DNA of 64,000 nucleotides from Bacteroidota bacterium (GCA_021796215.1 JAJYOK010000011.1:4747-68746); one strand, 5' to 3'. Shown: positions 10,354 to 52,509, numbered from the stretch's first letter. Notes: generated from the letters alone by a model not told the origin. Numbers and translations are program-made.

Positions 10354-10730
10354 CTAGCTCAACTCCTTACAAATATAATTACCGCCGTTATCGGCGTAGA
10401 TATTAAAGTAACCTTTTAAGTGAAAAAAGTCAAGAAAATAGGCACATTTGAAGAGTTTTTTCATGCTTTCTTCAACAAAAACTGATGGAAAAATACACCG
10501 CCAGCGAATAAAGTCAAAAAATCCACAAAAGAGATTACAAGAGCCAAAAGACTTTCTTTTCCTTCTCGGTCAATTACAGAATTAGACGAACGAAAAGTAA
10601 AAATAGCGACCACAGCGACTATCATTCCGTTTGCTTATTTTAGATTCATCTCGTACACTTAAAGTTGAATCCATTACGCCGTGCTGAACTGACATTACCA
10701 ACATTGATCTTTCTTTCTCAACAAAAAAAA

Positions 10731-11735
10731 GTGAAATTGAAAATCCGCCGTGCTTTATCTTTTGGCGGAACGTGGATACCAATTCTCGCGCTGGTGCTAA
10801 GTTTTTATTCCGGCTGCAGTTTGGATGCGCCACACGACAACCCGTTAGATCCGCTTTCGCCAAAATTTGAGAATGCCGGAACTATCCAAGGAAGGGTCCT
10901 TAGCCTCGGCAGTTCAGGAATCGCAAACGCCGTCGTCAGTTTTACGACCAGCGGTATTGCCGCAATTACGGACAACAACGGAAATTTCTCAGCAGAACAT
11001 GTTTCCGCCGGTACCATGCTCATTACTGTAACAAAAGACGGATTTCTTCCCGACAGCATCTCGCTGCAACTCGCTGCCGGACAAACAACATCGCTCGAAA
11101 TTCATCTCGACGCACTTCCGCAGATTTCTGGACAGCAAATTATTACAAAGAAAACCGACCAATGGTGGCCCGGACCGACATACAGCGCAGTGGTCACTGC
11201 CAATATCACCGATCCTGATGGTCAGACAGACTTTGATACAGCGTTTGTCACTGTAGATTCTCTTCAATTTGGAATGACATATTCCAACAGTGATAAGAAT
11301 TTTCAAACGACAATTCTTGCCGACAGCCTTCCCACAGGCAACCTTCAGTGGCTGATTGGAAAGACGTTAACAGTTTTTGCGAAGGACAAAGAGCGTGCTT
11401 TAACACAGGGTAATGATTTTTACGTCTCAAGAATAATCGAAGCGACTGCAATCCCGACTTCGCCGACAACACAAGACACAGTACGGGATTCATTATATTT
11501 CCAATGGAATCCGCCGTCATTGACTTTTCCCTATACATTCACTATCAATCTTTACATGCTCAACAGCGGGACACCGCTGTGGACAGAATCAAATATCGTT
11601 CCTGCGCCGCCATTCGCGTTTACATTTCCGGGCTTTACCACACTACAGCCAGGCTCATACTATTGGACAGTCGCCGTAATTGATGAATTCGGAAACAGCG
11701 CCCGGTCAAAGGAGGCATCGTTCATCGTACCATGA
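10731..11735 (+). CDS. lipoprotein with carboxypeptidase-regulatory-like (CarbopepD_reg) domain
   Basis: Probable GTG start giving lipobox signal VKLKIRRALSFGGTWIPILALVLSFYSGC. CarbopepD_reg-like segment GTIQGRVL...ITDNNGNF...GTMLITVTKDGF. Stop overlaps the EBP start (ATGA). Confidence 0.5.
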   Translation: MKLKIRRALSFGGTWIPILALVLSFYSGCSLDAPHDNPLDPLSPKFENAGTIQGRVLSLGSSGIANAVVSFTTSGIAAITDNNGNFSAEHVSAGTMLITVTKDGFLPDSISLQLAAGQTTSLEIHLDALPQISGQQIITKKTDQWWPGPTYSAVVTANITDPDGQTDFDTAFVTVDSLQFGMTYSNSDKNFQTTILADSLPTGNLQWLIGKTLTVFAKDKERALTQGNDFYVSRIIEATAIPTSPTTQDTVRDSLYFQWNPPSLTFPYTFTINLYMLNSGTPLWTESNIVPAPPFAFTFPGFTTLQPGSYYWTVAVIDEFGNSARSKEASFIVP

Positions 11736-13231
11736 AAAAAACAGAAGAACACCCTGCAGTGCAAGATTCATTCGACGCATTGTATAACATCACGCAGAGC
11801 ATCAATTCCATTCTTGATCCGGAAGAATTGCTCGACAAGGTGCTCGAAATCGCAATGGAGCATCTTGATGCCGAGCGCGGTCTGATTCTGCTTAATAACA
11901 TCGAAAGCGAATTGGGATTCGACGTTGTCACCGCGAAGAACTTCACCGATACACATTCTTCCAGCAAACTTGCTGCGTCTTCTTCCGTCGTCAAGAAAGT
12001 ACTCTCTTCAGGCGAACCGGTGCTGACGTTCGATGCGCTTTCGGATGAACGATTCGAAGCGTCGCGCAGCATCGTTGCCCAGAAAATTCTTTCCATCATT
12101 TGCGTGCCGCTTCGGCAGATGGAACGGACCACCGGTGCACTGTATCTTGACACAACAAAAGCCCGCGGAAAATTCACGCAAGAAACTTTGAAATTTCTCG
12201 CAATCTTCGGACACCTTGCCGGTATCGCCATTGATAATGCGCGACGATACGATTCACTGCGTAAAGAAAACGAGCGGCTGAAAAATGAAGTCGGCTCCGC
12301 AACACTGCACGGCGAATTGATCGGACGAAGCAAAACATGGAAGGCAACGCTCGACCTCGTTATGCGCGTTGTTGATACCGACGCGTCCGTTCTTATCACC
12401 GGAGAAAGCGGCACTGGAAAAGAATTGATTGCCCGCGCAATCCATTTCAGCGGCAGACGGAAAGATAAACCGTTCATGGCAGTGAATTGTTCGGCAATTC
12501 CCGAACAGCTTCTCGAAAGTGAATTGTTCGGTTACAAAAAAGGCGCCTTCACCGGCGCGAGTGCGGATAAAATCGGACTGATCGAATATGCAAATGGCGG
12601 AACGCTTTTTCTTGATGAAGTCGGCGACCTCCCGGCTTCACTTCAGGCAAAGCTCCTGCGCGTGATTCAGGAGCGAGAAATCCGGCGAGTAGGCGATGTT
12701 CAGGATCGAAAAGTGGATGTAAGAATTGTTACTGCAACGAACAGGGATTTGGATGTAGAAATTAAAGAAGGAAAATTTCGCGACGACTTATATTTCCGGC
12801 TGAACGTCATCAGTATTCCGCTTGCTCCGCTGCGGGAACGCAAAGAAGATATTCCGCTTCTTGCACGTTATTTTATGGAGAAGGCTTCAACGGCACACAA
12901 ACGGCTGGTCAAGAACATCACGGCTGAAGCAATGGAAAAGTTGCTGAAACACCCGTGGCACGGCAACGCGCGCGAACTGCAAAATGTGATGGAGCGGGCT
13001 GTTGTGTTGTCGCGAGGCGAAGAGATTACGGAAGAAGATCTTCATCTTCAACTATTGACGGAAGAAGATCTTGTGCAAAGCGGTTTAACACTGGAAGAAT
13101 TCGAGCGGAAGCTCGTTGAGAAAACTCTTGTCGAGATGAACGATAATAGAACAAAAACAGCGGAGAAGTTAGGCGTTTCACTCCGCTGGCTGCAATATCG
13201 CCTGAAAGAATGGCATCGTGACACAAAATAA
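11732..13231 (+). CDS. sigma-54-dependent transcriptional activator (GAF domain, AAA+ sigma54-interaction domain, Fis-type HTH)
   Basis: GESGTGKE Walker A, ESELFGYKKGAFTGA (GAFTGA loop), arginine fingers, C-terminal HTH TKTAEKLGVSLRWLQYRL. N-terminal GAF-like domain. Confidence 0.9.
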   Translation: MKKTEEHPAVQDSFDALYNITQSINSILDPEELLDKVLEIAMEHLDAERGLILLNNIESELGFDVVTAKNFTDTHSSSKLAASSSVVKKVLSSGEPVLTFDALSDERFEASRSIVAQKILSIICVPLRQMERTTGALYLDTTKARGKFTQETLKFLAIFGHLAGIAIDNARRYDSLRKENERLKNEVGSATLHGELIGRSKTWKATLDLVMRVVDTDASVLITGESGTGKELIARAIHFSGRRKDKPFMAVNCSAIPEQLLESELFGYKKGAFTGASADKIGLIEYANGGTLFLDEVGDLPASLQAKLLRVIQEREIRRVGDVQDRKVDVRIVTATNRDLDVEIKEGKFRDDLYFRLNVISIPLAPLRERKEDIPLLARYFMEKASTAHKRLVKNITAEAMEKLLKHPWHGNARELQNVMERAVVLSRGEEITEEDLHLQLLTEEDLVQSGLTLEEFERKLVEKTLVEMNDNRTKTAEKLGVSLRWLQYRLKEWHRDTK

Positions 13232-14771
13232 TTTTACCATCATCGAAAAACTGAGCGAGGGACCGACTGCCATTGTTTTCAAGGCGCGGCAAAACGCACT
13301 TGAGCGGATCGTTCTGTTAAAAATGCTGCAACCGCATCTTGTGAAGGACAACGATGCCGCCGCGCGATTCATGCGCGAAGCGAAGGCGTGCGCCATATTG
13401 AAGTCGGAAAACATCGTGCAGGTATACGATGTGGCAGAATTTGAAAACTTACCTGCGATTGTTATGGAATTTGTAGACGGCACTCCGCTCGATGAGTTGT
13501 TGAAAACGCACGGTTCATTCGATGAAGCATTCTTACGGAAGACGGCGCAAGAAGTTCTCATTGCACTTGAAAATGCCCATGCGAACGGTGTGATTCATCG
13601 GGATATTAAGCCGGCAAATATTATTCTTTCAGACCGAAACATAATCAAAGTCACCGATTTCGGCATTGCCGCAGTGGCAAGCTCACCATCGTTGACGACT
13701 GAAGGAAATCTGATGGGAACGCCCGCGTATATGTCACCGGAGCAAGCGCGCGGAGAAACTGTTGACGAGCGGACCGATTTCTTTTCGCTCGGAGTTACGC
13801 TCATCGAACTTGCAACCGGTGAAAAAATCTTCGGCGGAAATTCGTACGCAGAATGCCTTCACAAAATTCTCGGCTTTGATGGAAAGCTTCCGGAACATTT
13901 CATGCCGAATACCTCTGTCAACTTCAAAACGTTTCTCTCAAAACTGATCACGCCAAATAAAGAGCATCGTTATACCACAGCAGCCGATGCACTGCAAGGA
14001 ATTTCTGGCACGAACACTCCCGCCTCCCAATCGAACGGAAAGCCGGTGAGATCGTATCGTAAAACTGCGATTCTTACATCAATTGCTGTTATCGCGATGG
14101 CAGCAGTAACAATTTTCTTTTCGAACCATCGAAAACAAACTGACAACGATTCGCCGACTGCCCATCCGGCAGCAGCGGCTTCGCAGAACAAAACAATCAA
14201 TACCGGCGAATCAAGCGAGCAAAAAAACGATTCGCCAAAAAATAATTTGCAGCCGTCAACTACACTGGATCATTTCCCTCAGCAATTGGAAATAAAAGAA
14301 AGTCCGGCTGTAAGCACGGCAGTTCCCATCGTAAAATCGGATTCCGGTTATCTTGCAATCACGTGCACGCCGTGGGGAAAAGTTTTTATTGACAGTCAAT
14401 ATATTGAAACGACGCCGATTGCCGGTACGGTCAGAGTGAGAAGCGGAACTCACGTTGTGACTTTTGTGAATCCCGATTTTGTTCCAATGATGAAAACGAT
14501 CACAATCAAAAAGAATACCCAAACTGCCGTGGATGCAAACTTTCTCGACAAAGCGGGTTATCTGTTTATCACGGCAGACCCTTGGGCAGACGTTTACATT
14601 GATGATCAGCACAGAGATACGACGCCGCTTTCTCACCCGATCATTACGTCAGCCGGTACGAGAAAAATTCGCTTACACAATCCGGCATTTAAGGACTATG
14701 AAACGATCATTACAGTGACCGCTCATGATACAGTGAAACTTAACTATTCTTTTGTTGTGGCGAAAAATTAG
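13218..14771 (+). CDS. serine/threonine protein kinase with TM segment and two C-terminal PEGA domains
   Basis: HRDIKPANI, DFG, SPE kinase motifs. TM helix AILTSIAVIAMAAVTIFF. Two PEGA-like repeats (CTPWGKVFIDSQ / ADPWADVYIDDQ). GTG start at 13218 overlaps the EBP stop by 14 nt. Confidence 0.85.
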   Translation: MTQNNFTIIEKLSEGPTAIVFKARQNALERIVLLKMLQPHLVKDNDAAARFMREAKACAILKSENIVQVYDVAEFENLPAIVMEFVDGTPLDELLKTHGSFDEAFLRKTAQEVLIALENAHANGVIHRDIKPANIILSDRNIIKVTDFGIAAVASSPSLTTEGNLMGTPAYMSPEQARGETVDERTDFFSLGVTLIELATGEKIFGGNSYAECLHKILGFDGKLPEHFMPNTSVNFKTFLSKLITPNKEHRYTTAADALQGISGTNTPASQSNGKPVRSYRKTAILTSIAVIAMAAVTIFFSNHRKQTDNDSPTAHPAAAASQNKTINTGESSEQKNDSPKNNLQPSTTLDHFPQQLEIKESPAVSTAVPIVKSDSGYLAITCTPWGKVFIDSQYIETTPIAGTVRVRSGTHVVTFVNPDFVPMMKTITIKKNTQTAVDANFLDKAGYLFITADPWADVYIDDQHRDTTPLSHPIITSAGTRKIRLHNPAFKDYETIITVTAHDTVKLNYSFVVAKN

Positions 14772-14808
14772 TTTTTCGGCACGAAGATTGTAGCATAATA
14801 TAGATAGA

Positions 14809-16113
14809 ATGAAAAAGAAAAAATCCATAGTGAACATTTTGGAACTTCCGGTCAGCATTCTTCTCCTGACATTTCTGCTGGTTTTACCTGTGTTTTCGCA
14901 GGTAAATGAGCAATTGTTCATGCCAACTCCTCGCTTCGGCATGTGTTCCGCACAGCTTGGAGATGTTATTTATCTTATCGGCGGAAGCACTAGTATAAGT
15001 GGTGAAAGCGAAGATGAAGTGCAAAATCTGCAGGTTTCTTCTGTGGTTGAAGCATTCAATCTGGATAGCTTGGTATGGTACACCAACATAGCGCATCTTA
15101 ACACTGCACGATTTTTTGCATGCAGCGCAGTCGCTGACAGCCAAATTTACGTGATGGGTGGAATGGATTCGAACGGTCATGCACTGAATTCTGTTGAAAG
15201 ATATGATCCGGTGCAAAATAAGTGGTCGTTCGTCGCATCAATGACCCAGTCCCGCCAAGGTGCGGCAGCCGTGACCGTAGGCGATTCAATTTATGTTTTC
15301 GGCGGCGCAAGTCATGGAAATTTGTTAGACGATGTTGAAGTGTATTCTGTTACAAACAATACGTGGACTATTCATCCTCAGATGATGACAGCACGCGCTT
15401 TCCATTTCGTTTTTCGTTATCGGAATATGATTTACATTATCGGTGGACTGAATCTGCTCGGTCCGTTGAAAGCGATTGAGCGTTACCCGCTGAATGGCAA
15501 TATGAACATGGGGTCGCTTTCGATGTATACTGCGCGAGTCAAATTCGGTGCTTTAGTCGTTCAAGACAGCCTGTTATTCATTATTTCCGGTATTGGCCCA
15601 ACAGGTGCGATCAGAGATGCCGAAGAGTTTCATGCAGATCGCGAAGCAACAACATTTGCTTCTTCAGTTTCAACAAACCTGCATTCTGCACGATTCGCAT
15701 TTATTGCAGCGATGGGAGCTAACAACAATACAATTTATCTTTTTGGCGGCTTATCACCTGATTATAAAAGCGGAAGCGCACCTGTTCCAGTTGTTGATCA
15801 AGTTTCTGCTGTCACTTCTGTCCCGAAATCTGATCCTCTAAATCCTATTAAATTTAGTATGAATCAAAATTTTCCAAACCCATTCAATCCGTCAACGAGA
15901 ATCACATTCGAAACGACGCAGGAAAATGAGCCGGTCAGATTGTCCGTCTTTAATATGATTGGGCAGGAGATACAAGTCCTTGTTGACAATCCGTTGCCGC
16001 GTGGCGAACACACAATCGAATTTAGCGGAAGCGAATTGCCAAGCGGAATTTATTTCTACCAACTCAGTTCTCCCGAAGGAACGTTGACGAAAAGGATGGT
16101 ATTGCTGAAATGA
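14809..16113 (+). CDS. Kelch-repeat protein with T9SS C-terminal sorting domain
   Basis: Signal peptide. Repeated IYxxGG/W Kelch blades. C-terminal NFPNPFNPST...GIYFYQLSS...MVLLK Por-secretion tail. Confidence 0.8.
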   Translation: MKKKKSIVNILELPVSILLLTFLLVLPVFSQVNEQLFMPTPRFGMCSAQLGDVIYLIGGSTSISGESEDEVQNLQVSSVVEAFNLDSLVWYTNIAHLNTARFFACSAVADSQIYVMGGMDSNGHALNSVERYDPVQNKWSFVASMTQSRQGAAAVTVGDSIYVFGGASHGNLLDDVEVYSVTNNTWTIHPQMMTARAFHFVFRYRNMIYIIGGLNLLGPLKAIERYPLNGNMNMGSLSMYTARVKFGALVVQDSLLFIISGIGPTGAIRDAEEFHADREATTFASSVSTNLHSARFAFIAAMGANNNTIYLFGGLSPDYKSGSAPVPVVDQVSAVTSVPKSDPLNPIKFSMNQNFPNPFNPSTRITFETTQENEPVRLSVFNMIGQEIQVLVDNPLPRGEHTIEFSGSELPSGIYFYQLSSPEGTLTKRMVLLK

Positions 16114-16886
16114 GTCTCACAGCACGAAGAACACTCGTAGTGCTGTTATTCATTTTCCTCAATCATGCGTACGGTCAAGTACCGGCGGCGCAAGATTCAA
16201 CTTTGCGTGCCATTGATACTCTTTTCACAAACGGGTCATATCTTTCTTCCGAACTTGAAGCGCGGCGTTTATTAGAAACTCCCGTCATCAGCGATTCTGT
16301 CAAAGCACAAGCGGAAAAGTACATCGCCTTTTCACTTGTTGCACAAGGGCAAAACGAAGCCGCGACTGAACATTTCATTTCTGCAATGAAATTGGATCCG
16401 GGATTTTCTCTCGATCCTGTTCTTACCTCTCCTAAAATTATGTCCGTTTACCGCGATGCGCGAGAACAATTCCGCATTCAACAATTGCAGCGACCGCCAA
16501 AAAATGAAAAGTCTATGCACGAAGAAGGCGGCGGACCAACATTGCGCGCTTTGATTTTCCCGGGATGGGAACAGATCTATCAAGGCAAAAGTGCGAAAGG
16601 ATATGTGCTGCTGGGAGCCGGTGTGATTTCGCTGGCTTCAACTTTGTATTTCGACCAGGTGCGAAAGGATAAACGTTCAAGTTATCTTGCCGCCGCCACG
16701 CCCGTAGAAGCTTCGGCACGTTATTCAAATTATAATTCAGCTTATAAAGCTGAATACTATTCTGCCGCTATCTTTGGAATTATTTACGTTTACTCAACCC
16801 TCGATGCATTTATTCCGCTTCCTCCTCAGTTTGATCTTTCCATTTCACCCTTCTCTTCCTCCCTTTCATTCAGCTATTCATGGTAA
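16110..16886 (+). CDS. DUF5683-like membrane protein (signal peptide, TPR-like N-region, two TM helices)
   Basis: ATGA overlap with the Kelch gene. C-terminal module LIFPGWEQIYQGK...LDAFIP is paralogous to the ORF at 57165-57797 (IPGAGQIYNG...LDAYVDA). Confidence 0.5.
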   Translation: MSLTARRTLVVLLFIFLNHAYGQVPAAQDSTLRAIDTLFTNGSYLSSELEARRLLETPVISDSVKAQAEKYIAFSLVAQGQNEAATEHFISAMKLDPGFSLDPVLTSPKIMSVYRDAREQFRIQQLQRPPKNEKSMHEEGGGPTLRALIFPGWEQIYQGKSAKGYVLLGAGVISLASTLYFDQVRKDKRSSYLAAATPVEASARYSNYNSAYKAEYYSAAIFGIIYVYSTLDAFIPLPPQFDLSISPFSSSLSFSYSW

Positions 16887-16907
16887 CGCGCAAAAGATGC
16901 GTGCTAT

Positions 16908-16924
16908 TCTGCAAGTCCTGCAGA
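16908..16924 (+). promoter_or_regulatory. 17-bp palindrome TCTGCAAGtCCTGCAGA, candidate EBP enhancer (UAS)
   Basis: 7/8 inverted repeat centred on 16916, 64-80 nt upstream of the sigma54 -24 element. Confidence 0.35.
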
Positions 16925-16986
16925 GATTTTCACATTGAATTTTCAAAAAAAACTCTAGGCGATTGAAATATAACGGATTATGCTTT

Positions 16987-17001
16987 TGGCACGGAGCTTG
17001 C
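16987..17001 (+). promoter_or_regulatory. sigma-54 (RpoN) promoter, -24/-12 elements
   Basis: TGGCACGgagcTTGC matches the consensus TGGCACG-N4-TTGCW exactly in both conserved dinucleotides (GG 16988-16989, GC 17000-17001) and spacing. About 52 nt upstream of the ATG at 17054, which has a good SD (AAGGAGA). Confidence 0.65.
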
Positions 17002-17053
17002 GGTTACTTACCCTAGTAACTAACATATCAAACATTATAAGGAGAGAAAAATC

Positions 17054-19399
17054 ATGAAAAGAAAGTTACTTGCAGTTGTCTCGACTACGGTACTTGCACT
17101 TCTGGTGGGCGTTGCCGCGGCATCAGCTCAAATGCATCCGGATTTCTTTTTGAATGCAAAACTTCAGTCCGATGGACATGTAAATTTGGAGTGGACTGCG
17201 CCAACAGGCGTGACTGTAAATTCATACATCGTGTATCGTGCAGATCTTGCCGTACCATACATGTCAGCAATGCCTGTCAACTTTGTTGCGATAGACACGA
17301 CACACGACACAAGTTACAGTGATTTTCCGCATTCCAGCTTTAGCGACTCGGCTTTCTTTGCGTATTATGTTTCCGCTCAAATAGATAGCGGAATGTCGTT
17401 ACGAAGTAATGTCGCAGTAATTAATAACTCAAGCTACGGCGGAGGAGAAGAAGATCACATAACGATCACCTCAACTCCAGTAACAAGCGGACAAATCGGT
17501 GTTGAATATACATATCAAGTCGTCGCACATTCTTCTGATTCTACTGCCACGCTTATGTATCGCCTTGACGATCATCCCTCCGGAATGAATATTGATTCCA
17601 CAGGATTCATTACATGGACGCCGATGCAACACGGCTGGTATGAAGTTGAAGTAGAAGTCAAATCAGACAAAGGCGGAGAAGCAGGGCAGCATTTCATGAT
17701 TCGTGTCGGTGCCGGCAATGGTACTGTTGCAGGAACAATTACAGATTCTTTAGGCAATCCGATTCGCCATGTGATGGTACAGCTCTTTCAACGCACACAA
17801 AATGAGCCTTTCGAATATTCTGCCATTACCGATTCCATCGGAACATACTCGGTTGACAAACTTGACTCGGGCACATATTTCGCCCGCGCGATTCCTCTTC
17901 GTTACGACTATTTACCGCAATGGTACAATGGCGCACAAAGTCGTACCGATGCCACACCAATCAACGTCGCTGATAATGCAACAACGACCGTCAACTTTAC
18001 ATTACAGGCGCGGGCAGCCGTTCTTCCGACATTCACCGTGCAAGGAATGGTTACCGATTCAGCAAACGCAGCAATCTCGAACGCGGCAGTATTTTTTGTG
18101 AGCGCAGGATTCGCATTAAATTCTCATGGAGACATCAGTAATCTTCATTGGTTCGACCGCGGAGACATTCAGGAAATGTTCGAGCACCATAACGAGGACA
18201 GCAGTAGGGATCATGATTTCAGCCTGGAAGGAAACTCGCGCTTCGTAACAAAAGCTAACGTCGACGCTTCCGGCAAATATTCCGCCACATTAACTCAAGG
18301 CTCGTATATTGCTTTTGCAGTTGCACCGGGTTACCAGCGGGTATTCTTCAACGGACAAAGCGATCCTCTTTCAGCAAATGTGATTGTGGTGAATTCAGAC
18401 ACAGCGGGAATCAATTTTGTCATGGCACCAAATCCGCCGCTCGTGCTCGGACAAATTAACGGATCGGTAATTGATTCCACAACCGGCACCGGAGCTGCTG
18501 CACGCATCATTGCGTATCGCGACCGCTGGACACATCCGGATACGATTATGGCGCCGCACACATTCTCCACAGATGCAGATTCAACCGGCAATTATTCATT
18601 GGCTGATTTGCCGCCGGGAGATTACATCGTCTTTGCAGTGCCGCTCGGCAATTATGTTCCGTCGTTCTACAGCACATCCGGGTCAACGCTTCACTGGAAG
18701 AATGCAACAAAAGTAACAGTCAACGGAACGACCGTCGCCGGAATCAACATCTATGTAAAGCCGCTGGTGAATCCTGCTCTCGGCTACACATCGGTGTATG
18801 GACAAATAACTGTCAACATCAACGCATCAGCGAGTTTGCAAAAAGCCGATGTGACCGCCGCTCTTTCAGGCGGAGTTGTGTACGCTCTCGATGCGAACGG
18901 TAATGTTGCAGGATACGGTTTTACAACATCAACAGGCAGTTACACGATTGTTGACCTTGCGCCGGGCACCTATACGGTCTCGACAGAAGCGCCGGGTTAC
19001 GACTCCGGCTCTTCCACAGCATCGCCAACATACGATGCGTCCGGAAATCCGCAGCCGGCAAACGCTTCCTACAGCGTGAATTCTCTTACGTTGGTCGGCA
19101 ATAACAACGGGCTGCAACCGAGCGGTTACGCGCTTGAACAAAATTATCCGAATCCGTTCAACCCGTCAACGCAAATTGTGTTCAGCATTCCGCAAGATCA
19201 ACGTGTAACGATAGCAGTTTTCAACATTCTCGGACAAAAAGTTGCCACGCTTCTTGATCGCACGCTCAGAGCAGGAACACATGTTGTGACATGGGCTGGC
19301 AAAGATGACAACGGATTTACTGCCCCATCCGGTGTCTATCTTTATAGAATTTCGACAGCAAACTTTACGGCAGTAAAAAAGATGATGCTGTTGAAGTAA
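17054..19399 (+). CDS. large secreted T9SS cargo protein with multiple CarbopepD_reg/Ig-like domains and C-terminal sorting domain
   Basis: 781 aa. Signal peptide (LLVGVAAASAQ). Repeated GxVxD..G.P..A.V...TDs.GtY modules. C-terminal NYPNPFNPSTQIVF...GVYLYRIST...MMLLK. Confidence 0.8.
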   Translation: MKRKLLAVVSTTVLALLVGVAAASAQMHPDFFLNAKLQSDGHVNLEWTAPTGVTVNSYIVYRADLAVPYMSAMPVNFVAIDTTHDTSYSDFPHSSFSDSAFFAYYVSAQIDSGMSLRSNVAVINNSSYGGGEEDHITITSTPVTSGQIGVEYTYQVVAHSSDSTATLMYRLDDHPSGMNIDSTGFITWTPMQHGWYEVEVEVKSDKGGEAGQHFMIRVGAGNGTVAGTITDSLGNPIRHVMVQLFQRTQNEPFEYSAITDSIGTYSVDKLDSGTYFARAIPLRYDYLPQWYNGAQSRTDATPINVADNATTTVNFTLQARAAVLPTFTVQGMVTDSANAAISNAAVFFVSAGFALNSHGDISNLHWFDRGDIQEMFEHHNEDSSRDHDFSLEGNSRFVTKANVDASGKYSATLTQGSYIAFAVAPGYQRVFFNGQSDPLSANVIVVNSDTAGINFVMAPNPPLVLGQINGSVIDSTTGTGAAARIIAYRDRWTHPDTIMAPHTFSTDADSTGNYSLADLPPGDYIVFAVPLGNYVPSFYSTSGSTLHWKNATKVTVNGTTVAGINIYVKPLVNPALGYTSVYGQITVNINASASLQKADVTAALSGGVVYALDANGNVAGYGFTTSTGSYTIVDLAPGTYTVSTEAPGYDSGSSTASPTYDASGNPQPANASYSVNSLTLVGNNNGLQPSGYALEQNYPNPFNPSTQIVFSIPQDQRVTIAVFNILGQKVATLLDRTLRAGTHVVTWAGKDDNGFTAPSGVYLYRISTANFTAVKKMMLLK

Positions 19400-19429
19400 C
19401 AAAAATTGGGGGGCGTTTCCAAAATCAGG

Positions 19430-19469
19430 CAAGGGACGTGCATGGATAGTGCACGCCCCTTGTTCTGTA
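19430..19469 (+). terminator. hairpin after the T9SS cargo gene (13-bp stem, 1 mismatch, 7-nt loop) followed by a weak U-tract
   Basis: CAAGGGACGTGCA-tggatag-TGCACGCCCCTTG then ttctgtat. Lies between the 17054 gene and the small OMP gene. Confidence 0.45.
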
Positions 19470-19487
19470 TAAGAAAGGAGAAAAACG

Positions 19488-20021
19488 ATGACACGATCAA
19501 CATTAAAAACCCGCCATATTTTATCTTTGAGCGGAAAAATATTCGCGCTCTTCATCTTCTGCGTCGCACTAGCCTCCGCACAAGACCGCGGGGTCGGCGT
19601 CGGTATCATTGTCGGCGAGCCGACAGGCATCAGCACGAAAATCTGGACATCGCAGACGAATGCCGTTGATATCGGAATTGGATGGTCGAGCGGAGACCAT
19701 TACTTGGTACGGATGGGAAACGGGTACTGGCAGTACGTGAACGACACGTACGTCCATTTCTATGCAGATTATCTCTGGCATTCATTCAATGCCATCCGGT
19801 CACAGGAACGCTTTCCGTTATACTACGGCGTCGGTATGACAATCCACAGCGGACAAATGTCGCCGTACAATTGGCTTGGAGTGCGGGGAACATTCGGCAT
19901 CGAATGGATGCCGCACCGCACGCCGATGGATGTATTTTTTGAAATCTCACCGACATTGCAGCTTGCCCCTTTCAGCACTTTCGGCTTCAATGCCGGACTC
20001 GGCACACGATTCTATTTTTAA
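19488..20021 (+). CDS. small outer-membrane beta-barrel protein (hypothetical)
   Basis: 177 aa. Signal peptide (IFALFIFCVALASAQ). Alternating aromatic/Gly-rich strands. C-terminal ...GLGTRFYF. Confidence 0.5.
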   Translation: MTRSTLKTRHILSLSGKIFALFIFCVALASAQDRGVGVGIIVGEPTGISTKIWTSQTNAVDIGIGWSSGDHYLVRMGNGYWQYVNDTYVHFYADYLWHSFNAIRSQERFPLYYGVGMTIHSGQMSPYNWLGVRGTFGIEWMPHRTPMDVFFEISPTLQLAPFSTFGFNAGLGTRFYF

Positions 20022-20043
20022 AGATGGATCAATGTACATACAG

Positions 20044-20075
20044 GCGGCGTGATTAAGAACGCCGCCTTTTTTATT
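20044..20075 (+). terminator. rho-independent terminator
   Basis: GGCGGCG-tgattaaga-CGCCGCC followed by TTTTTTATTTC. Confidence 0.7.
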
Positions 20076-20167
20076 TCTTCCCGTAAAGATGTTGCATCTC
20101 CCTTAATTTATTTTTAACTTTTGCAGTCCTACACTAACGAGCCGACTTTAAAACCTCCGGAGGGATT

Positions 20168-21880
20168 ATGTATCATATCCTCGTTCGATTCAACGCTCTG
20201 CTCATCGTGCTTGCAAGTTTCAATTCGCTCTATGCACAATCTTCAGCGATGCCTTATTTGAATCTCCCACGCGGCATTTACTCGTATAGCATTGGGAAGC
20301 AGGGTGTCACATCGCGCGACCCGGTGGACGCCATGCTCTACAATCCGGCAAATCTCGTTTTCGCTGCAAAACCGCAGCTAACCTTCAACAGACAGCCGGC
20401 ATTTATTCCGAACACATGGTTTTCTTCTTTATCGGCTTCAATGGATGTACCGGAGACCGGCTACTTTGGTTTTGAATATACAAATTACGATTTAGGCGAA
20501 TTCGTTCAGACATCCGATCAAGGACCTCAAGTGATTGCTACTTTCCATTCTTATGAGCAAGCATTTTCACTTGCGTACGCACGAAAATTTTCAAATGCAT
20601 TTTCCGCAGGTATTCAATTTCGTTATGCACTCGACCATTTTCCATCAATAGGAACAGCCTCTTCTTCTGGAATTGCTAACTATCCTGCATATTTGTTCAG
20701 CGGCGGTGTACGGTACGATCCTGTTGCTCTCAGGGATCGCTTTTCTTTCGGATATGCTTTGACGAATTTTGGCACAACTATCACTTACGGAGACCCTTCA
20801 CAAGCAGACCCTCCCCCCGCTCAAATGAATCTCGGAATTTCCGGCGACGCAATTAAAAATGAATTCATTACTATGACGCTTTCCATCGCCGCATCAAAAC
20901 CAGTTAATTACAGAGCATGGAATCCCGCCACCCAAACGCACGAAGCGGAATCTTCTTTCAAAGCATTCTTCGACGATTGGCAGCACACGCCGGACGATAT
21001 TGATTTTCATAGCGGACTTTCCTTTTCGTGGAATCCGATTTCGCTGGGAAATGGCTTCTCATATTTTCAGTCTATGTATCTCGGCGAAATTTCAGGCGGA
21101 TCGTATTATGGACTTGCAGACCAATTTACGCACGGCGCTGAAATAGGCCTAAGCTGGAATGATATACAACTTGCACTTGGTTATGCCGGAACGTGGCATT
21201 ATGTTAATCAGGAAGACGCCGCGTCTTTTAGAGCGTTTATGTCGCTGCCGCAGGAAGATGTGCAGCTTTCACTCAGTGCGCCGCTTTCATCATTCCAACG
21301 GGAAAAAAATACCAGTATACAGCCGCCTAAACTTTCACGAATTATTCTTTCAGCCGGAGTGACACGCATGATACGCTTCGGACATTTCCATACTTCTGAG
21401 TCTTATGGTGCCGGTCAGTATTTCCCTAACACTTACGGCTACGGAATCGAAGCGGCATTTTATGTTACGAAAACTTCCGCACTTGTCTCATCCTTTTCGT
21501 ACACACAAATGGATGATGAAGTTTACTATCTCGGCAATAATGGGAAGCGGTATACAAACTTCACTGCACAGATAGACAACCTCTCTTTCGCATCGTCATA
21601 TCGAAATTATCCGCTCACAGCGTTCTTTCCGTTTTTCTATGAAGTCGGTCTGGGAATTACACGGTGGGAAAGCAGGAAAGAAAAAATGATCCCAAAGTAT
21701 TATTATAAGACCTTTGCCTGTGGAGGAATCGGTGCGCTCGTAAAGATAATAAACAACGTTGAGCTGATTCCTAAGGTGGGATTCCAAAGCACACTTATGC
21801 CCGTTACCGGAAATGCACCGCGCATCGGCGGCTACAATCAGTGGAATTTTTCTCTCAACGCCGGCTACAGTTTTGAATGA
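20168..21880 (+). CDS. outer-membrane beta-barrel protein (hypothetical; signal peptide)
   Basis: 570 aa. Signal LLIVLASFNSLYAQ. Tyr/Gly-rich amphipathic strands throughout, ends ...NAGYSFE. SD GGAGGG present. Confidence 0.5.
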   Translation: MYHILVRFNALLIVLASFNSLYAQSSAMPYLNLPRGIYSYSIGKQGVTSRDPVDAMLYNPANLVFAAKPQLTFNRQPAFIPNTWFSSLSASMDVPETGYFGFEYTNYDLGEFVQTSDQGPQVIATFHSYEQAFSLAYARKFSNAFSAGIQFRYALDHFPSIGTASSSGIANYPAYLFSGGVRYDPVALRDRFSFGYALTNFGTTITYGDPSQADPPPAQMNLGISGDAIKNEFITMTLSIAASKPVNYRAWNPATQTHEAESSFKAFFDDWQHTPDDIDFHSGLSFSWNPISLGNGFSYFQSMYLGEISGGSYYGLADQFTHGAEIGLSWNDIQLALGYAGTWHYVNQEDAASFRAFMSLPQEDVQLSLSAPLSSFQREKNTSIQPPKLSRIILSAGVTRMIRFGHFHTSESYGAGQYFPNTYGYGIEAAFYVTKTSALVSSFSYTQMDDEVYYLGNNGKRYTNFTAQIDNLSFASSYRNYPLTAFFPFFYEVGLGITRWESRKEKMIPKYYYKTFACGGIGALVKIINNVELIPKVGFQSTLMPVTGNAPRIGGYNQWNFSLNAGYSFE

Positions 21881-23432: not shown

Positions 23433-25022
23433 TTACTTCAACAGAATCATTTGCTTCGATTCTGTAAAGCTTCCGGCGCGCACTGTGTAGAAGTACATTC
23501 CTGAACCGAGTTTGCTTCCGTCAAATTGCACTTCGTACGTTCCCGGTGCTTTTCGTTCATTCACCAGTGTTGCCACTTCTCTTCCCAGCACATCATAAAC
23601 TTTCAGTACCACATTCTGACTGCCGGCTACTGAATACTGAATACTCGTTGAGGGATTGAATGGATTAGGATAATTCTGTCCAAGAGAAAATTTCAGCGGC
23701 TGCACGCGCTGTTGATCTGCCACACCCGTTGTCGTGATGTTAATGATCACTCCCGTATCGCCCGGATGAGCCGTGACATCCGGAAAATTGTATTGAGTTG
23801 TCGTTTGGAAATTTTCTACAATCCGATAATTGAAAATCTTGTTGCTCACTGGTATCGAGAAATTACCTGTTCCGCTGTCGCACCATGTAGATGCCTGTGC
23901 AGTATCCTGATTTTGCGCCATTAGTTGAATCGGGAAACCGGGAGCGTTTCCATCAATCTCAACTTTTCCTTGTATTGAAGAATTGACGCTGTAGATGACC
24001 AAATGCTTAAACACGCTGTCTCCTGCGGCAAGCGACGGTACTTGTGCAACTGCATCAAGGAGCGAGCCGGTTTGTCCATTATTATTTTGTTCATACACCT
24101 GAAGTGTCCACGCCGTTCCCGCAATCAAGTCCGAGCTTTGCGCGCCGATGAGGAAAAGCCCGTTGACATCGGTTCTTCCGCCATACTGAATATTCGAACC
24201 GCTATTGTCATTTCTAAATAACTCAACATCCTGACCCACAACCGCGGCTCCATTTTCATCTTTCACAGTTCCATCTACCTGAGCAGCGGCGGCAACGATG
24301 GAAAAATTAATGCTCGACAGATTACCGTTAATAATGATATCCTGTTCGCCCGGAGTAACAATAGCAGGGGCAAACGGATTATTGCTGACGCGGACTTTCC
24401 ACGGATTTCCTGCAGTATCTGCGTCCATCTCAATTGTATAATTACCGTTCCCATCAGCATGTCCAACCCAAAAGGGATTATTGTTTTTTCCACTGCTTGG
24501 CTCTGCTTGGACAAGAAGGTCTGCCGGATTTTTGCCTGACGGCACCGTTACGGTGCCAGAGATGGTATGAGCGGGAGAGGATAAATGATTTACAAATCCG
24601 CTCACACTATCAGTTACACCACCTTCTGTAAATTTCAATATATAGGGTCCCGGCGCAAGTCCGATCGGCGAGCTGAAGAAAACCGCACCGTTTACTGTGC
24701 CATCCATATCGGGCGGACCGCCATTTCCATTTGTATCACCGTCCGCTTGTGTAAAACTCTGCCAAAGAATATAATGATTAGCGGAATTTATTGCGTTTGC
24801 TTCAACCAAGTACCAAAGCTCTACTGTGGCACTGGCTCCATTGGGAGAAACGTTGTAACTCCATGTTACCGTATCTCCTGATGTCACCGTAAAACTCGTA
24901 GAAGAGCCATTCACTTTCAAATTGGAAATCTGCGCTGAAGATTTCATCGGGAAAATCACCAACGCAAAAAAGCACAACAATGGGATAAGGCTCCACCGTC
25001 GTAACAAAAAACGAGACTTCAT
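23433..25022 (-). CDS. secreted protein with T9SS C-terminal sorting domain (hypothetical)
   Basis: Start at MKSRFLLRRWSLIPLLCFFALVIF (ATG 25022). C-terminal NYPNPFNPSTSIQY...GMYFYTVRAG...MILLK. Confidence 0.75.
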   Translation of the reverse strand: MKSRFLLRRWSLIPLLCFFALVIFPMKSSAQISNLKVNGSSTSFTVTSGDTVTWSYNVSPNGASATVELWYLVEANAINSANHYILWQSFTQADGDTNGNGGPPDMDGTVNGAVFFSSPIGLAPGPYILKFTEGGVTDSVSGFVNHLSSPAHTISGTVTVPSGKNPADLLVQAEPSSGKNNNPFWVGHADGNGNYTIEMDADTAGNPWKVRVSNNPFAPAIVTPGEQDIIINGNLSSINFSIVAAAAQVDGTVKDENGAAVVGQDVELFRNDNSGSNIQYGGRTDVNGLFLIGAQSSDLIAGTAWTLQVYEQNNNGQTGSLLDAVAQVPSLAAGDSVFKHLVIYSVNSSIQGKVEIDGNAPGFPIQLMAQNQDTAQASTWCDSGTGNFSIPVSNKIFNYRIVENFQTTTQYNFPDVTAHPGDTGVIINITTTGVADQQRVQPLKFSLGQNYPNPFNPSTSIQYSVAGSQNVVLKVYDVLGREVATLVNERKAPGTYEVQFDGSKLGSGMYFYTVRAGSFTESKQMILLK

Positions 25023-25336
25023 ACAACCTCCTGTAAAATTATGAATAAGGGATAACACAAACTTTGTTCGTTGGGAAATAAGAAATTACTGTTACTGGAA
25101 TAATTTCATAAATAATCAGAATTTTCGAATTGCAGGTGTTTATCGAAGGTTGCGGAAATTTATTTCGTGCGGCTGTGATGCAGGGCAAACATTAGTCCCA
25201 CCCATCGAAAAACTTATTCAACACGTCCTTTGCTGCTTCTCTTACTCCTATAAAGCAATTATTAATTGCAATATACACTTTTTCGGATTGTGTGCAAATG
25301 GGATGTATTCTCAGCGGATGAAATGATTCTACGTTC

Positions 25337-51291: not shown

Positions 51292-52509
51292 CTATTCATA
51301 CCGGAGAGCATCTATTGGATTGAGTATCGCCGCTTTGCGTGCAGGATAGAATCCGAAGAAAATGCCGACAGCCGCTGCAAAAAGGAATGCTAATCCCACA
51401 GAAACAGGCGAAACAAGAGTAGGCCAATTAGCCAATGCCGAGATAATATCTGAAGATGCAATGCCGATGAGAACACCAAGCGCACCGCCCGCCATGCTCA
51501 GCACGACCGCTTCAATAAGGAACTGATATAAAATATCTCTGCTCCGCGCACCAATTGACATGCGAATGCCAATCTCACGCGTTCGTTCTGTAACCGACAC
51601 GAGCATGATGTTCATAATTCCAATGCCGCCCACCAGAAGAGAAATGGATGCAATAGATGCGAGAAGAATTGTCAGCACTTGGGTTGTTGCCTGCGCGGTG
51701 TTGGCAATTTCTGTTTGACTGCGAACTGTGAAGTCGTTGTCTTCCCACGGCTGAATTTTGTGACGCACGCGCAGCAATTCCGTTATCTGATTCTGAGCAT
51801 CCACCATTGCTTGATCGCTCACAGCAGACACCATGATGATTCCCAAAAATGTCACACCCATGAGTTTTTTTTGCACGGTTGTGTATGGCGCAATAATAAT
51901 ATCATCCTGATCCGATCCCTGCGCGGATTGTCCTTTCGGTTCGAGAACGCCGACAACCTTGAACGGCATTTTTTTAATTCGAATTGTTGCTCCTACCGGA
52001 TTGCCACCTTGAAAAAGGTTATCAACCACAGTTTGTCCAAGCACGCATACTTTCGTAGCACCGCGGACATCGGCGTCGGTAAAATACTGTCCTAGAGAAA
52101 GCGGCCAGCTTCGGATCGTAAAGTATGACGGGTTTGCACCAAGGACCGATGTTCCCCAGTTCTGTTCACCAAACACAATCTGCGCACCGGTTCGCACTTG
52201 CGCTGTTGCTGCAGCAACGGATGGACATTGAGTTTGAATTGCCTCAAGGTCGCCGGGAGTCAGCGATGTGCGCGACCCTAATCCGATGCGAATACCGCCT
52301 TGATTAATTGAACCCGGGAAAACCAATAACACGTTCGTGCCGAGCGAAGCAATTTGCTGCTGAATGTTGTACTGTGCGCCTTCTCCGACCGCCATCATAG
52401 CAATCACCGCGCCAACGCCGATAATAATTCCTAACATTGTTAAAAACGAACGCAGTTTGTTTCTCCCCAACGAACGCATGGCAACTTTTAAAATATTGAG
52501 AACATTCAT
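51292..52509 (-). CDS. ABC transporter permease (FtsX/MacB-type, 4 TM with large periplasmic loop)
   Basis: 405 aa. N-terminal TM, large extracytoplasmic domain, C-terminal FtsX-like 3-TM bundle. Confidence 0.88.

Follow-up and report, generated by a model that had tools for sequence, protein, structure and literature searches.

The 64,000-nt stretch of Bacteroidota DNA analysed here (hereafter the window) encodes a 781-aa T9SS cargo protein whose gene is preceded by a short sequence resembling a -24/-12 element, which raises the question of whether this sequence acts as a sigma-54 promoter for the gene and, if so, which activator works on it. An earlier note on this DNA had proposed such a promoter, and our analysis bears the proposal out: the -24/-12 element is conserved at this junction, an activator gene is always syntenic with it, and we regard 16987-17001 as very probably a functional sigma-54 (RpoN) promoter for the 781-aa gene. 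It forms one part of a regulatory cassette that is conserved across related loci. The elements immediately around the start of the cargo gene are:

16987-17001, + strand: predicted sigma-54 promoter core, TGGCACGGAGCTTGC (from sequence, PWM and conservation)
17039-17046, + strand: Shine-Dalgarno sequence of the cargo gene, AAGGAGAG (from sequence)
17054-19399, + strand: 781-aa cargo gene, with full-length orthologues in five loci (L001-L005) at 39-82% identity

The core lies in coding-strand orientation within a non-coding intergenic region of 167 nt (16887-17053), with its T at 16987, the GG (-25/-24) at 16988-16989 and the GC (-13/-12) at 17000-17001, that is, in a GG-N10-GC spacing. The earlier description of the site as TGGCACG-N4-TTGCW with correctly spaced GG and GC stands for all 11 specified bases of TGGCACG-N4-TTGC and fails for the final W, as the base 3' of TTGC is a G. 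The site had also been placed 52 nt ahead of an ATG with a good Shine-Dalgarno sequence, and 52 nt indeed separate the core from the ATG at 17054, with AAGGAGAG in between. With C17001 set as -12, transcription is predicted to start near 17013, leaving a predicted 5' UTR of ~41 nt. In the orthologous loci the distance from -12 to the start codon has a median of ~57 nt, and most of them carry GGAG-type sites before the start codon. A subclade of eight loci (L053, L060, L061, L066, L069, L072, L077 and L092) has long leaders of about 135-150 nt that share a motif, GTCGTTCT-N3-5-ATTCA, ~10-35 nt downstream of -12 and just past the predicted start; this leader motif is absent from the window's clade. 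A known leader RNA was ruled out by an Rfam search of 16700-17200, which returned no match at E up to 1.

How much weight the sequence match carries by itself can be gauged within the window. The exact TGGCACG-N4-TTGC occurs once on its two strands (0.08 expected), in keeping with the earlier claim that it is the sole full consensus present, and an exact match turned up in 8 of 100 shuffles of the window. Loose matches are uninformative, since 22 sites with at most two mismatches to the consensus were seen versus 23.6 expected. A genome-wide PWM scan had been suggested as a check; run over the window with a sigma-54 matrix of 16 positions (built from the published consensus with approximate frequencies and used for ranking only), it placed TGGCACGGAGCTTGC first with 17.8 bits. 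The best scores of shuffled windows averaged 14.7 bits and reached a maximum of 19.2 bits, so that the PWM score is suggestive and not decisive, and because it falls within the shuffled range we took conservation as the deciding evidence. The second PWM score in the window (16.3 bits) belongs to TGGCGCGGTGATTGCT (52399-52414, - strand), which lies ~95 nt into the gene (51292-52509) of a MacB-like ABC permease and is probably a chance match.

Species-representative genomes queried with the 781-aa protein yielded five loci with full-length relatives, each with a sigma-54-like element before the cargo gene:

L001, Bacteroidetes MAG (JAJYOI01), 82% identity to the 781-aa protein: TGGCACGAAGGTTGC
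L002, Bacteroidota MAG, 78% identity: TGGCACGCCGATTGT
L003, Candidatus Kryptoniota MAG (JBJKPN01), 49% identity: CGGCACACCTGTTGC
L004, Bacteroidota MAG, 39% identity: TGGCACTCTATTTGT
L005, Bacteroidetes MAG, 42% identity: TGGCATTGGAATTGC

Candidatus Kryptoniota is a phylum within the FCB group. When the intergenic regions of the window and these five loci were aligned with MAFFT, their mean identity was 47%, and the invariant columns formed two blocks only, GGCA...TTG in the promoter and CGCAA....TGC further upstream. The earlier note missed the strongest supporting feature of the locus, a pair of tandem palindromes upstream of the promoter:

16889-16901, no strand assigned: candidate activator site 1, CGCAAAAGATGCG (YGCA-N5-TGCR), centred at ~-118 from the predicted start
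16910-16922, no strand assigned: candidate activator site 2, TGCAAGTCCTGCA (YGCA-N5-TGCR), centred at ~-97 from the predicted start

The centres of the two palindromes are 21 bp apart in the window, where site 2 begins 77 bp before the T of TGG, and each of the five orthologous loci likewise has two palindromes, 20-23 bp from start to start.

We enlarged this comparison by a metagenome scan with an alignment (A2) of the 258-aa protein encoded directly upstream of the palindromes. The scan added 75 loci at 30-51% identity and, once duplicates and contigs ending too early had been dropped, left 67 distinct junctions including that of the window. A GG-N10-G-type element was found 40-135 nt downstream of the palindromes in 67/67 junctions, the common spacing of GG and TTG being imposed by the search pattern and hence no independent result. 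Matches to TGGCAC-N5-TTGC at no fewer than eight of ten positions were present in the expected interval in 63/67 junctions, compared with 2% of 20,000 control segments of 95 nt drawn at random from these loci. The columns outside the search pattern are constrained as well, namely T at -26 (56/65), C at -23 (55/65), A at -22 (64/65), Y at -21 (65/65) and T at -15 (63/65), and the N5 spacer and the promoter flanks are essentially random among junctions. At -12 the base is C in 41, A in 16 and T in 8 of 65 junctions, and some of the orthologues with TTGA or TTGT (about a third) may be weak promoters. A search of 555 kb of syntenic loci, covering the two strands, for the strict TGGCA[CT]-N5-TTGC gave 31 matches, of which 30 are at the cargo junction, one is at a kinase-Kelch junction (L045) and none lies elsewhere. 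The -24/-12 element has thus been kept though the cargo proteins are only 30-82% identical and the surrounding intergenic DNA has diverged.

The palindromes are conserved to a similar extent. Site 2 was found in 67/67 junctions, and two strict palindromes with 19-23 bp spacing are present in 60/67; the other seven have one strict palindrome, several of them with a degenerate first copy discernible by eye. In the 60 loci with the strict motif, the GCA/TGC arms of site 1 are invariant. Throughout 1.06 Mb comprising the window and the loci, tandem pairs (18-24 bp spacing) occur 68 times, always at the cargo junction. Site 2 precedes the TGG by 62-67 bp in 56/67 junctions and by 75-78 bp, about one helical turn more, in 6/67, including the window and its close relatives; single junctions have spacings of 52, 85, 92, 93 and 98 bp. 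The helical phasing of site 2 relative to the promoter is therefore mostly, not perfectly, preserved, and is imperfect for the 92-93 bp spacers.

The spacer itself (16930-16985 and its equivalents in the other loci) contains an AT-rich, partly conserved block, for which the consensus in the 65-bp class is about AAATCCCC.ATTT.....AATTTC; the spacer of the window has an A8 tract. This block may be a site of bending or of an architectural protein. An IHF site (WATCAANNNNTTR) was considered and rejected, as inspection by eye gave no convincing match in the spacer, and because a clear IHF consensus is lacking we do not tie the putative bending to a protein.

Which protein would act at the palindromes is suggested by the genes upstream. 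All genes from 10665 to 21880 are on the + strand, and those of the regulatory part comprise:

10665-11735, + strand: first gene of the regulator operon, a syntenic CarboxypepD_reg protein with a lipoprotein-like N-terminus
11732-13231, + strand: candidate enhancer-binding protein with GAF, Sigma54_activat, AAA_lid and HTH_8 (Fis-type) domains
13218-14771, + strand: Hanks-type Ser/Thr kinase with a transmembrane segment and two C-terminal PEGA domains
16110-16886, + strand: 258-aa protein gene, always directly upstream of the palindromes and promoter

The sigma-54 activator that had been reported 4-5 kb upstream is thus present at 11732-13231, with a Sigma54_activat match at E 1.7e-72 and an intact GAFTGA, and is the one protein with GAFTGA encoded in the 64-kb window. 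Its gene overlaps the lipoprotein gene at its start and the kinase gene, by 14 nt, at its end. These overlaps of the first three genes, and a like overlap between the Kelch and 258-aa genes, indicate translationally coupled operons. The conserved order is lipoprotein, activator, kinase, (Kelch), 258-aa protein, promoter and cargo, with an optional Kelch gene that is absent from L004, L005 and most orthologous loci. In the 258-aa protein a signal peptide and a TPR-like N-terminal part are combined with two hydrophobic segments and the motif FPGWEQ, which is invariant; the protein matched no Pfam family and, among NCBIfam models, gave sub-threshold matches only (TssQ-family for the TPR-like part). 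Since its gene overlaps the kinase gene in loci without Kelch, the 258-aa protein may belong to the signalling module, of which the kinase is the presumed sensor.

Activator and kinase genes are present in every locus with 5 kb of upstream sequence. The activator loop reads GAFTGA, GSFTGA (ten loci) or GSFSGA in 46 of the 50 loci in which that region is covered and GAFTDA or GAFTSA in L048, L051 and L054; L052 is without a standard motif, and its junction sequence is that of L051. Promoter and palindromes are kept in these four loci and in those with GSFTGA. The conserved activator is also the one ground on which we infer that the source genome has sigma-54, an RpoN-box regular expression having found no match in six-frame translations of the window and 119 loci, which are small parts of each genome. 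That the regulator operon is autoregulated was considered and rejected, as its upstream region (10354-10664) holds neither a palindrome nor a strong -24/-12 match.

On this evidence the adjacent activator probably acts on the promoter through the tandem palindromes, synteny being the one basis on which we infer that the palindromes are its sites. The main alternative holds that the sigma-54 promoter is genuine and that another regulator binds the palindromes, or a distant enhancer-binding protein serves the promoter, the adjacent activator and kinase controlling something else. Further activators could be encoded outside the 64 kb covered by the window, and because the palindrome arms are invariant there is no covariation between them and the activator HTH that could be sought in support of the pairing. 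We nonetheless consider this alternative improbable: the activator gene is syntenic with palindromes and promoter wherever the upstream sequence suffices, the tandem palindromes occur nowhere else in the 1.06 Mb, a single GAFTGA protein is encoded in the window, and dyads ~100 bp upstream of a start are the normal architecture for an HTH_8 activator.

A second alternative, to which we assign a very low probability, denies the promoter itself: the GG-N10-GC block would be some other conserved element of DNA or RNA, for instance a repressor operator or a 5'-leader structure, and the cargo gene would be transcribed from a housekeeping-type promoter or by read-through from the 258-aa gene. Such read-through is possible because no terminator-like hairpin lies between the 258-aa stop codon and the motif. 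As to a housekeeping-type promoter, no sigma-70-like site was found on the + strand of 16887-17053 and the Bacteroidota-type TAnnTTTG motif is absent from this intergenic region, though the sigma-70-like patterns searched may not be the housekeeping form of the host phylum; neither these scans nor Rfam thus offered another identity for the element. Against a non-promoter role, conservation falls precisely on the bases that make up the sigma-54 consensus (T, GG, C, A, Y, N5, TTG, C) whereas flanks and N5 vary, and the element is accompanied by a sigma-54 activator gene and, at a fixed distance, by an enhancer-like tandem dyad. Finally, that TGGCACGGAGCTTGC is a chance match without function, as the exact matches and comparable PWM scores in shuffled windows might suggest, has a negligible probability and is effectively refuted by its conservation in 63 of 67 junctions versus 2% of controls and by the placement of 30 of 31 strict matches at the junction.

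The activation of a sigma-54 promoter by the adjacent regulator would follow a familiar scheme. At NtrC-class promoters of the glnAp2 type in enteric bacteria, two dyad NtrC sites lie upstream of the -24/-12 promoter, and these dyads, separated by ~two helical turns, seed the assembly of an AAA+ oligomer that loops to the closed RNA polymerase-sigma-54 complex and remodels it via ATP hydrolysis and GAFTGA. The locus described here resembles glnAp2 in its GG-N10-GC core, its TGGCAC-N5-TTGC consensus and its two tandem dyads ~100-120 bp upstream of the start, and its candidate activator resembles NtrC as an AAA+ protein that has GAFTGA in its loop and ends in a Fis-type HTH. Unlike NtrC, this activator has an N-terminal GAF domain and not a receiver, and the kinase encoded next to it is of the Hanks Ser/Thr type, with PEGA domains, and not a histidine kinase; the half-site here is YGCA-N5-TGCR and not that of NtrC, and the target is a T9SS cargo gene and not a nitrogen-assimilation gene. 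By analogy, RNA polymerase-sigma-54 would form a closed complex on TGGCAC-N5-TTGC, and dimers of the neighbouring activator would bind the palindromes at 16889-16901 and 16910-16922, assemble into an oligomer and loop over the short AT-rich spacer to the holoenzyme, so that ATP hydrolysis and the GAFTGA loop could open the promoter. The input signal might arrive via the membrane Ser/Thr kinase co-transcribed with the activator and/or via the activator's own GAF domain, and a second predicted sigma-54 promoter (14777-14791) would subject the genes for the Kelch and 258-aa proteins to this control as well.

Two other groups of activators invite comparison. NifA-type proteins have the architecture GAF-AAA+-HTH and bind sites of the form TGT-N10-ACA. 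The activator shares this three-domain architecture, and NifA is its best NCBIfam match (398.8 bits), with a score below the TIGR01817 equivalog cut-off of 528.85; on this score and on the conserved sites, which are YGCA-N5-TGCR and not TGT-N10-ACA, its identification as NifA was rejected, and there are no nif genes nearby. In Myxococcus xanthus, enhancer-binding proteins are linked to Ser/Thr kinase signalling, with examples that read phosphothreonine via FHA domains. The present locus is similar in that a sigma-54 activator is encoded beside a eukaryotic-like kinase, its sensory domain being GAF and not FHA.

The second predicted promoter lies between the kinase and Kelch genes, where the earlier note had placed a weaker variant of the consensus:

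14777-14791, + strand: predicted second sigma-54-type promoter, CGGCACGAAGATTGT (from conservation)
14809-16113, + strand: Kelch-repeat T9SS cargo gene, overlapping the start of the 258-aa gene
15020-15032, no strand assigned: intragenic YGCA-N5-TGCR palindrome, TGCAAAATCTGCA, within the Kelch ORF

This variant is indeed present: it directly follows the stop codon of the kinase gene, with 17 nt left before the ATG of the Kelch gene, and it is conserved in 7/7 loci that include the Kelch upstream region, the window among them. The elements in the other loci are:

L001: identical to CGGCACGAAGATTGT of the window
L003 and L117: CGGCACACTGGTTGC
L045: TGGCACGATCGTTGC
L049: TGGCACGGGCTTTGT
L118: TGGTATGGATTTTGT

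They follow the pattern [CT]GGCAC-N5-TTG[CT] in L001, L003, L045, L049 and L117 and TGGTAT-N5-TTGT in L118, and -12 is 14-18 nt from the Kelch ATG in L003, L045, L049 and L117. Because -12 is only 17 nt from the ATG in the window, the Kelch mRNA would have a leader of few nucleotides without a Shine-Dalgarno sequence; the Kelch gene is thus predicted to be near-leaderless, whereas the 781-aa gene has a Shine-Dalgarno sequence and a longer predicted leader. No YGCA-N5-TGCR palindrome was found upstream of the Kelch promoter. Relative to the -24 element, the intragenic palindrome is located at +209 to +244 in six loci and at +52 in L118. Its codon phase is constant and the DNA of its arms is preserved. 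The residues that it encodes differ among loci (V/A/M, Q, x, L/M, Q/H/R), as does its distance to the conserved IGG motif, and this combination argues for selection on the DNA and not on the protein. The palindrome may therefore be a downstream enhancer for the Kelch promoter. Caulobacter FlbD acts from downstream ftr enhancers, and the Kelch palindrome resembles these in that an enhancer, by conservation, would possibly lie downstream, within a coding region.

Sigma-54 promoters are established in Bacteroidota, and sigma-54 control of surface proteins has precedents in the FCB group. Flavobacterium psychrophilum carries a -24/-12 motif ahead of genes for gliding and for exported proteins, and a sigma-54 promoter (SM4) upstream of remFG-sprCDBF, an operon that encodes the T9SS-secreted adhesin SprB, was confirmed by mutagenesis (PMC9723704). 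Sigma-54 regulons have been reported in Bacteroidota (PMC12316311), and comparative work ties sigma-54, in general outline, to the cell exterior (PMC3162934). The locus studied here shares with remFG-sprCDBF a sigma-54-type promoter, a host in the FCB group and a T9SS-secreted surface protein as the product. The F. psychrophilum operon has two promoters (SM4 and SM5), with no cognate activator or upstream site assigned (PMC9723704), whereas here an activator gene, tandem palindromes and a single promoter make up one conserved cassette, in a host lineage related to Candidatus Kryptoniota and not to Flavobacteriia.

As a textbook sigma-54 promoter with enhancer in an uncultured FCB lineage, the locus is a clear but ordinary case of a known switch, and the understanding of how sigma-54 promoters operate is unchanged by it. 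The conserved activator/kinase cassette, of which a literature search of incomplete coverage found no description, appears to be undescribed. It provides a testable circuit in a candidate phylum without a cultured, genetically tractable member: a sigma-54 promoter and tandem YGCA-N5-TGCR dyads separated by ~two helical turns, together with candidates for the activator and the sensor kinase. For the FCB group, it would extend the control that sigma-54 has over proteins of the cell exterior and over those secreted by the T9SS (PMC9723704, PMC3162934), and its motif set could serve for regulon annotation in related MAGs. More tentatively, we advance as one joint reading that the locus represents an undescribed, self-contained signalling cassette, widely shared by uncultured, Kryptoniota-like members of the FCB group from wetlands and sediments, in which a membrane Ser/Thr kinase with extracytoplasmic PEGA domains and the 258-aa FPGWEQ membrane protein might control a GAF-type sigma-54 activator; this activator might have essentially one dedicated enhancer nearby and direct the production of a T9SS surface protein, plus a serpin in some lineages, together with an almost leaderless Kelch sigma-54 transcript whose enhancer would lie inside its own coding sequence.

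The predicted output of the promoter is recognisable as T9SS cargo. The 781-aa protein begins with a sequence, MKRKLLAVVSTTVLALLVGVAAASAQ, that by eye resembles a signal peptide. Its further domains are He_PIG/Ig, CarboxypepD_reg (three repeats) and an SdrD_B-like one, and at its C-terminus is a T9SS type A sorting domain (TIGR04183, 44.9 bits versus a cut-off of 23; PF18962, Por_Secre_tail, 32.3 versus 27). Downstream of its gene lie:

19488-20021, + strand: 177-aa gene with its own Shine-Dalgarno sequence, syntenic in L001 and L002
20042-20067, + strand: intrinsic-terminator-like hairpin and T-run

The 177-aa protein matched no Pfam or NCBIfam family. Its gene is probably co-transcribed with the cargo gene and so probably also served by the promoter, up to the hairpin at 20042-20067, which is the likely end of the transcription unit. 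Between the two genes a GC-rich hairpin of 13 bp (19430-19462), followed by a weak T tract, may terminate part of the transcripts or mark a point of processing inside the operon. Just 3' of the operon is a gene for a PorV/PorQ-family outer-membrane protein (20168-21880, + strand; 111 bits versus a cut-off of 90), and a further CarboxypepD_reg T9SS cargo gene is located at 23433-25058 (- strand); both genes lack tandem palindromes as well as strong -24/-12 matches. In two other loci, a serpin gene is inserted between the promoter and the T9SS cargo gene (L099, 6559-7797; L104, 6002-7261; Pfam Serpin, E ~1e-105), and the predicted output of the module in these serpin lineages includes a protease inhibitor.
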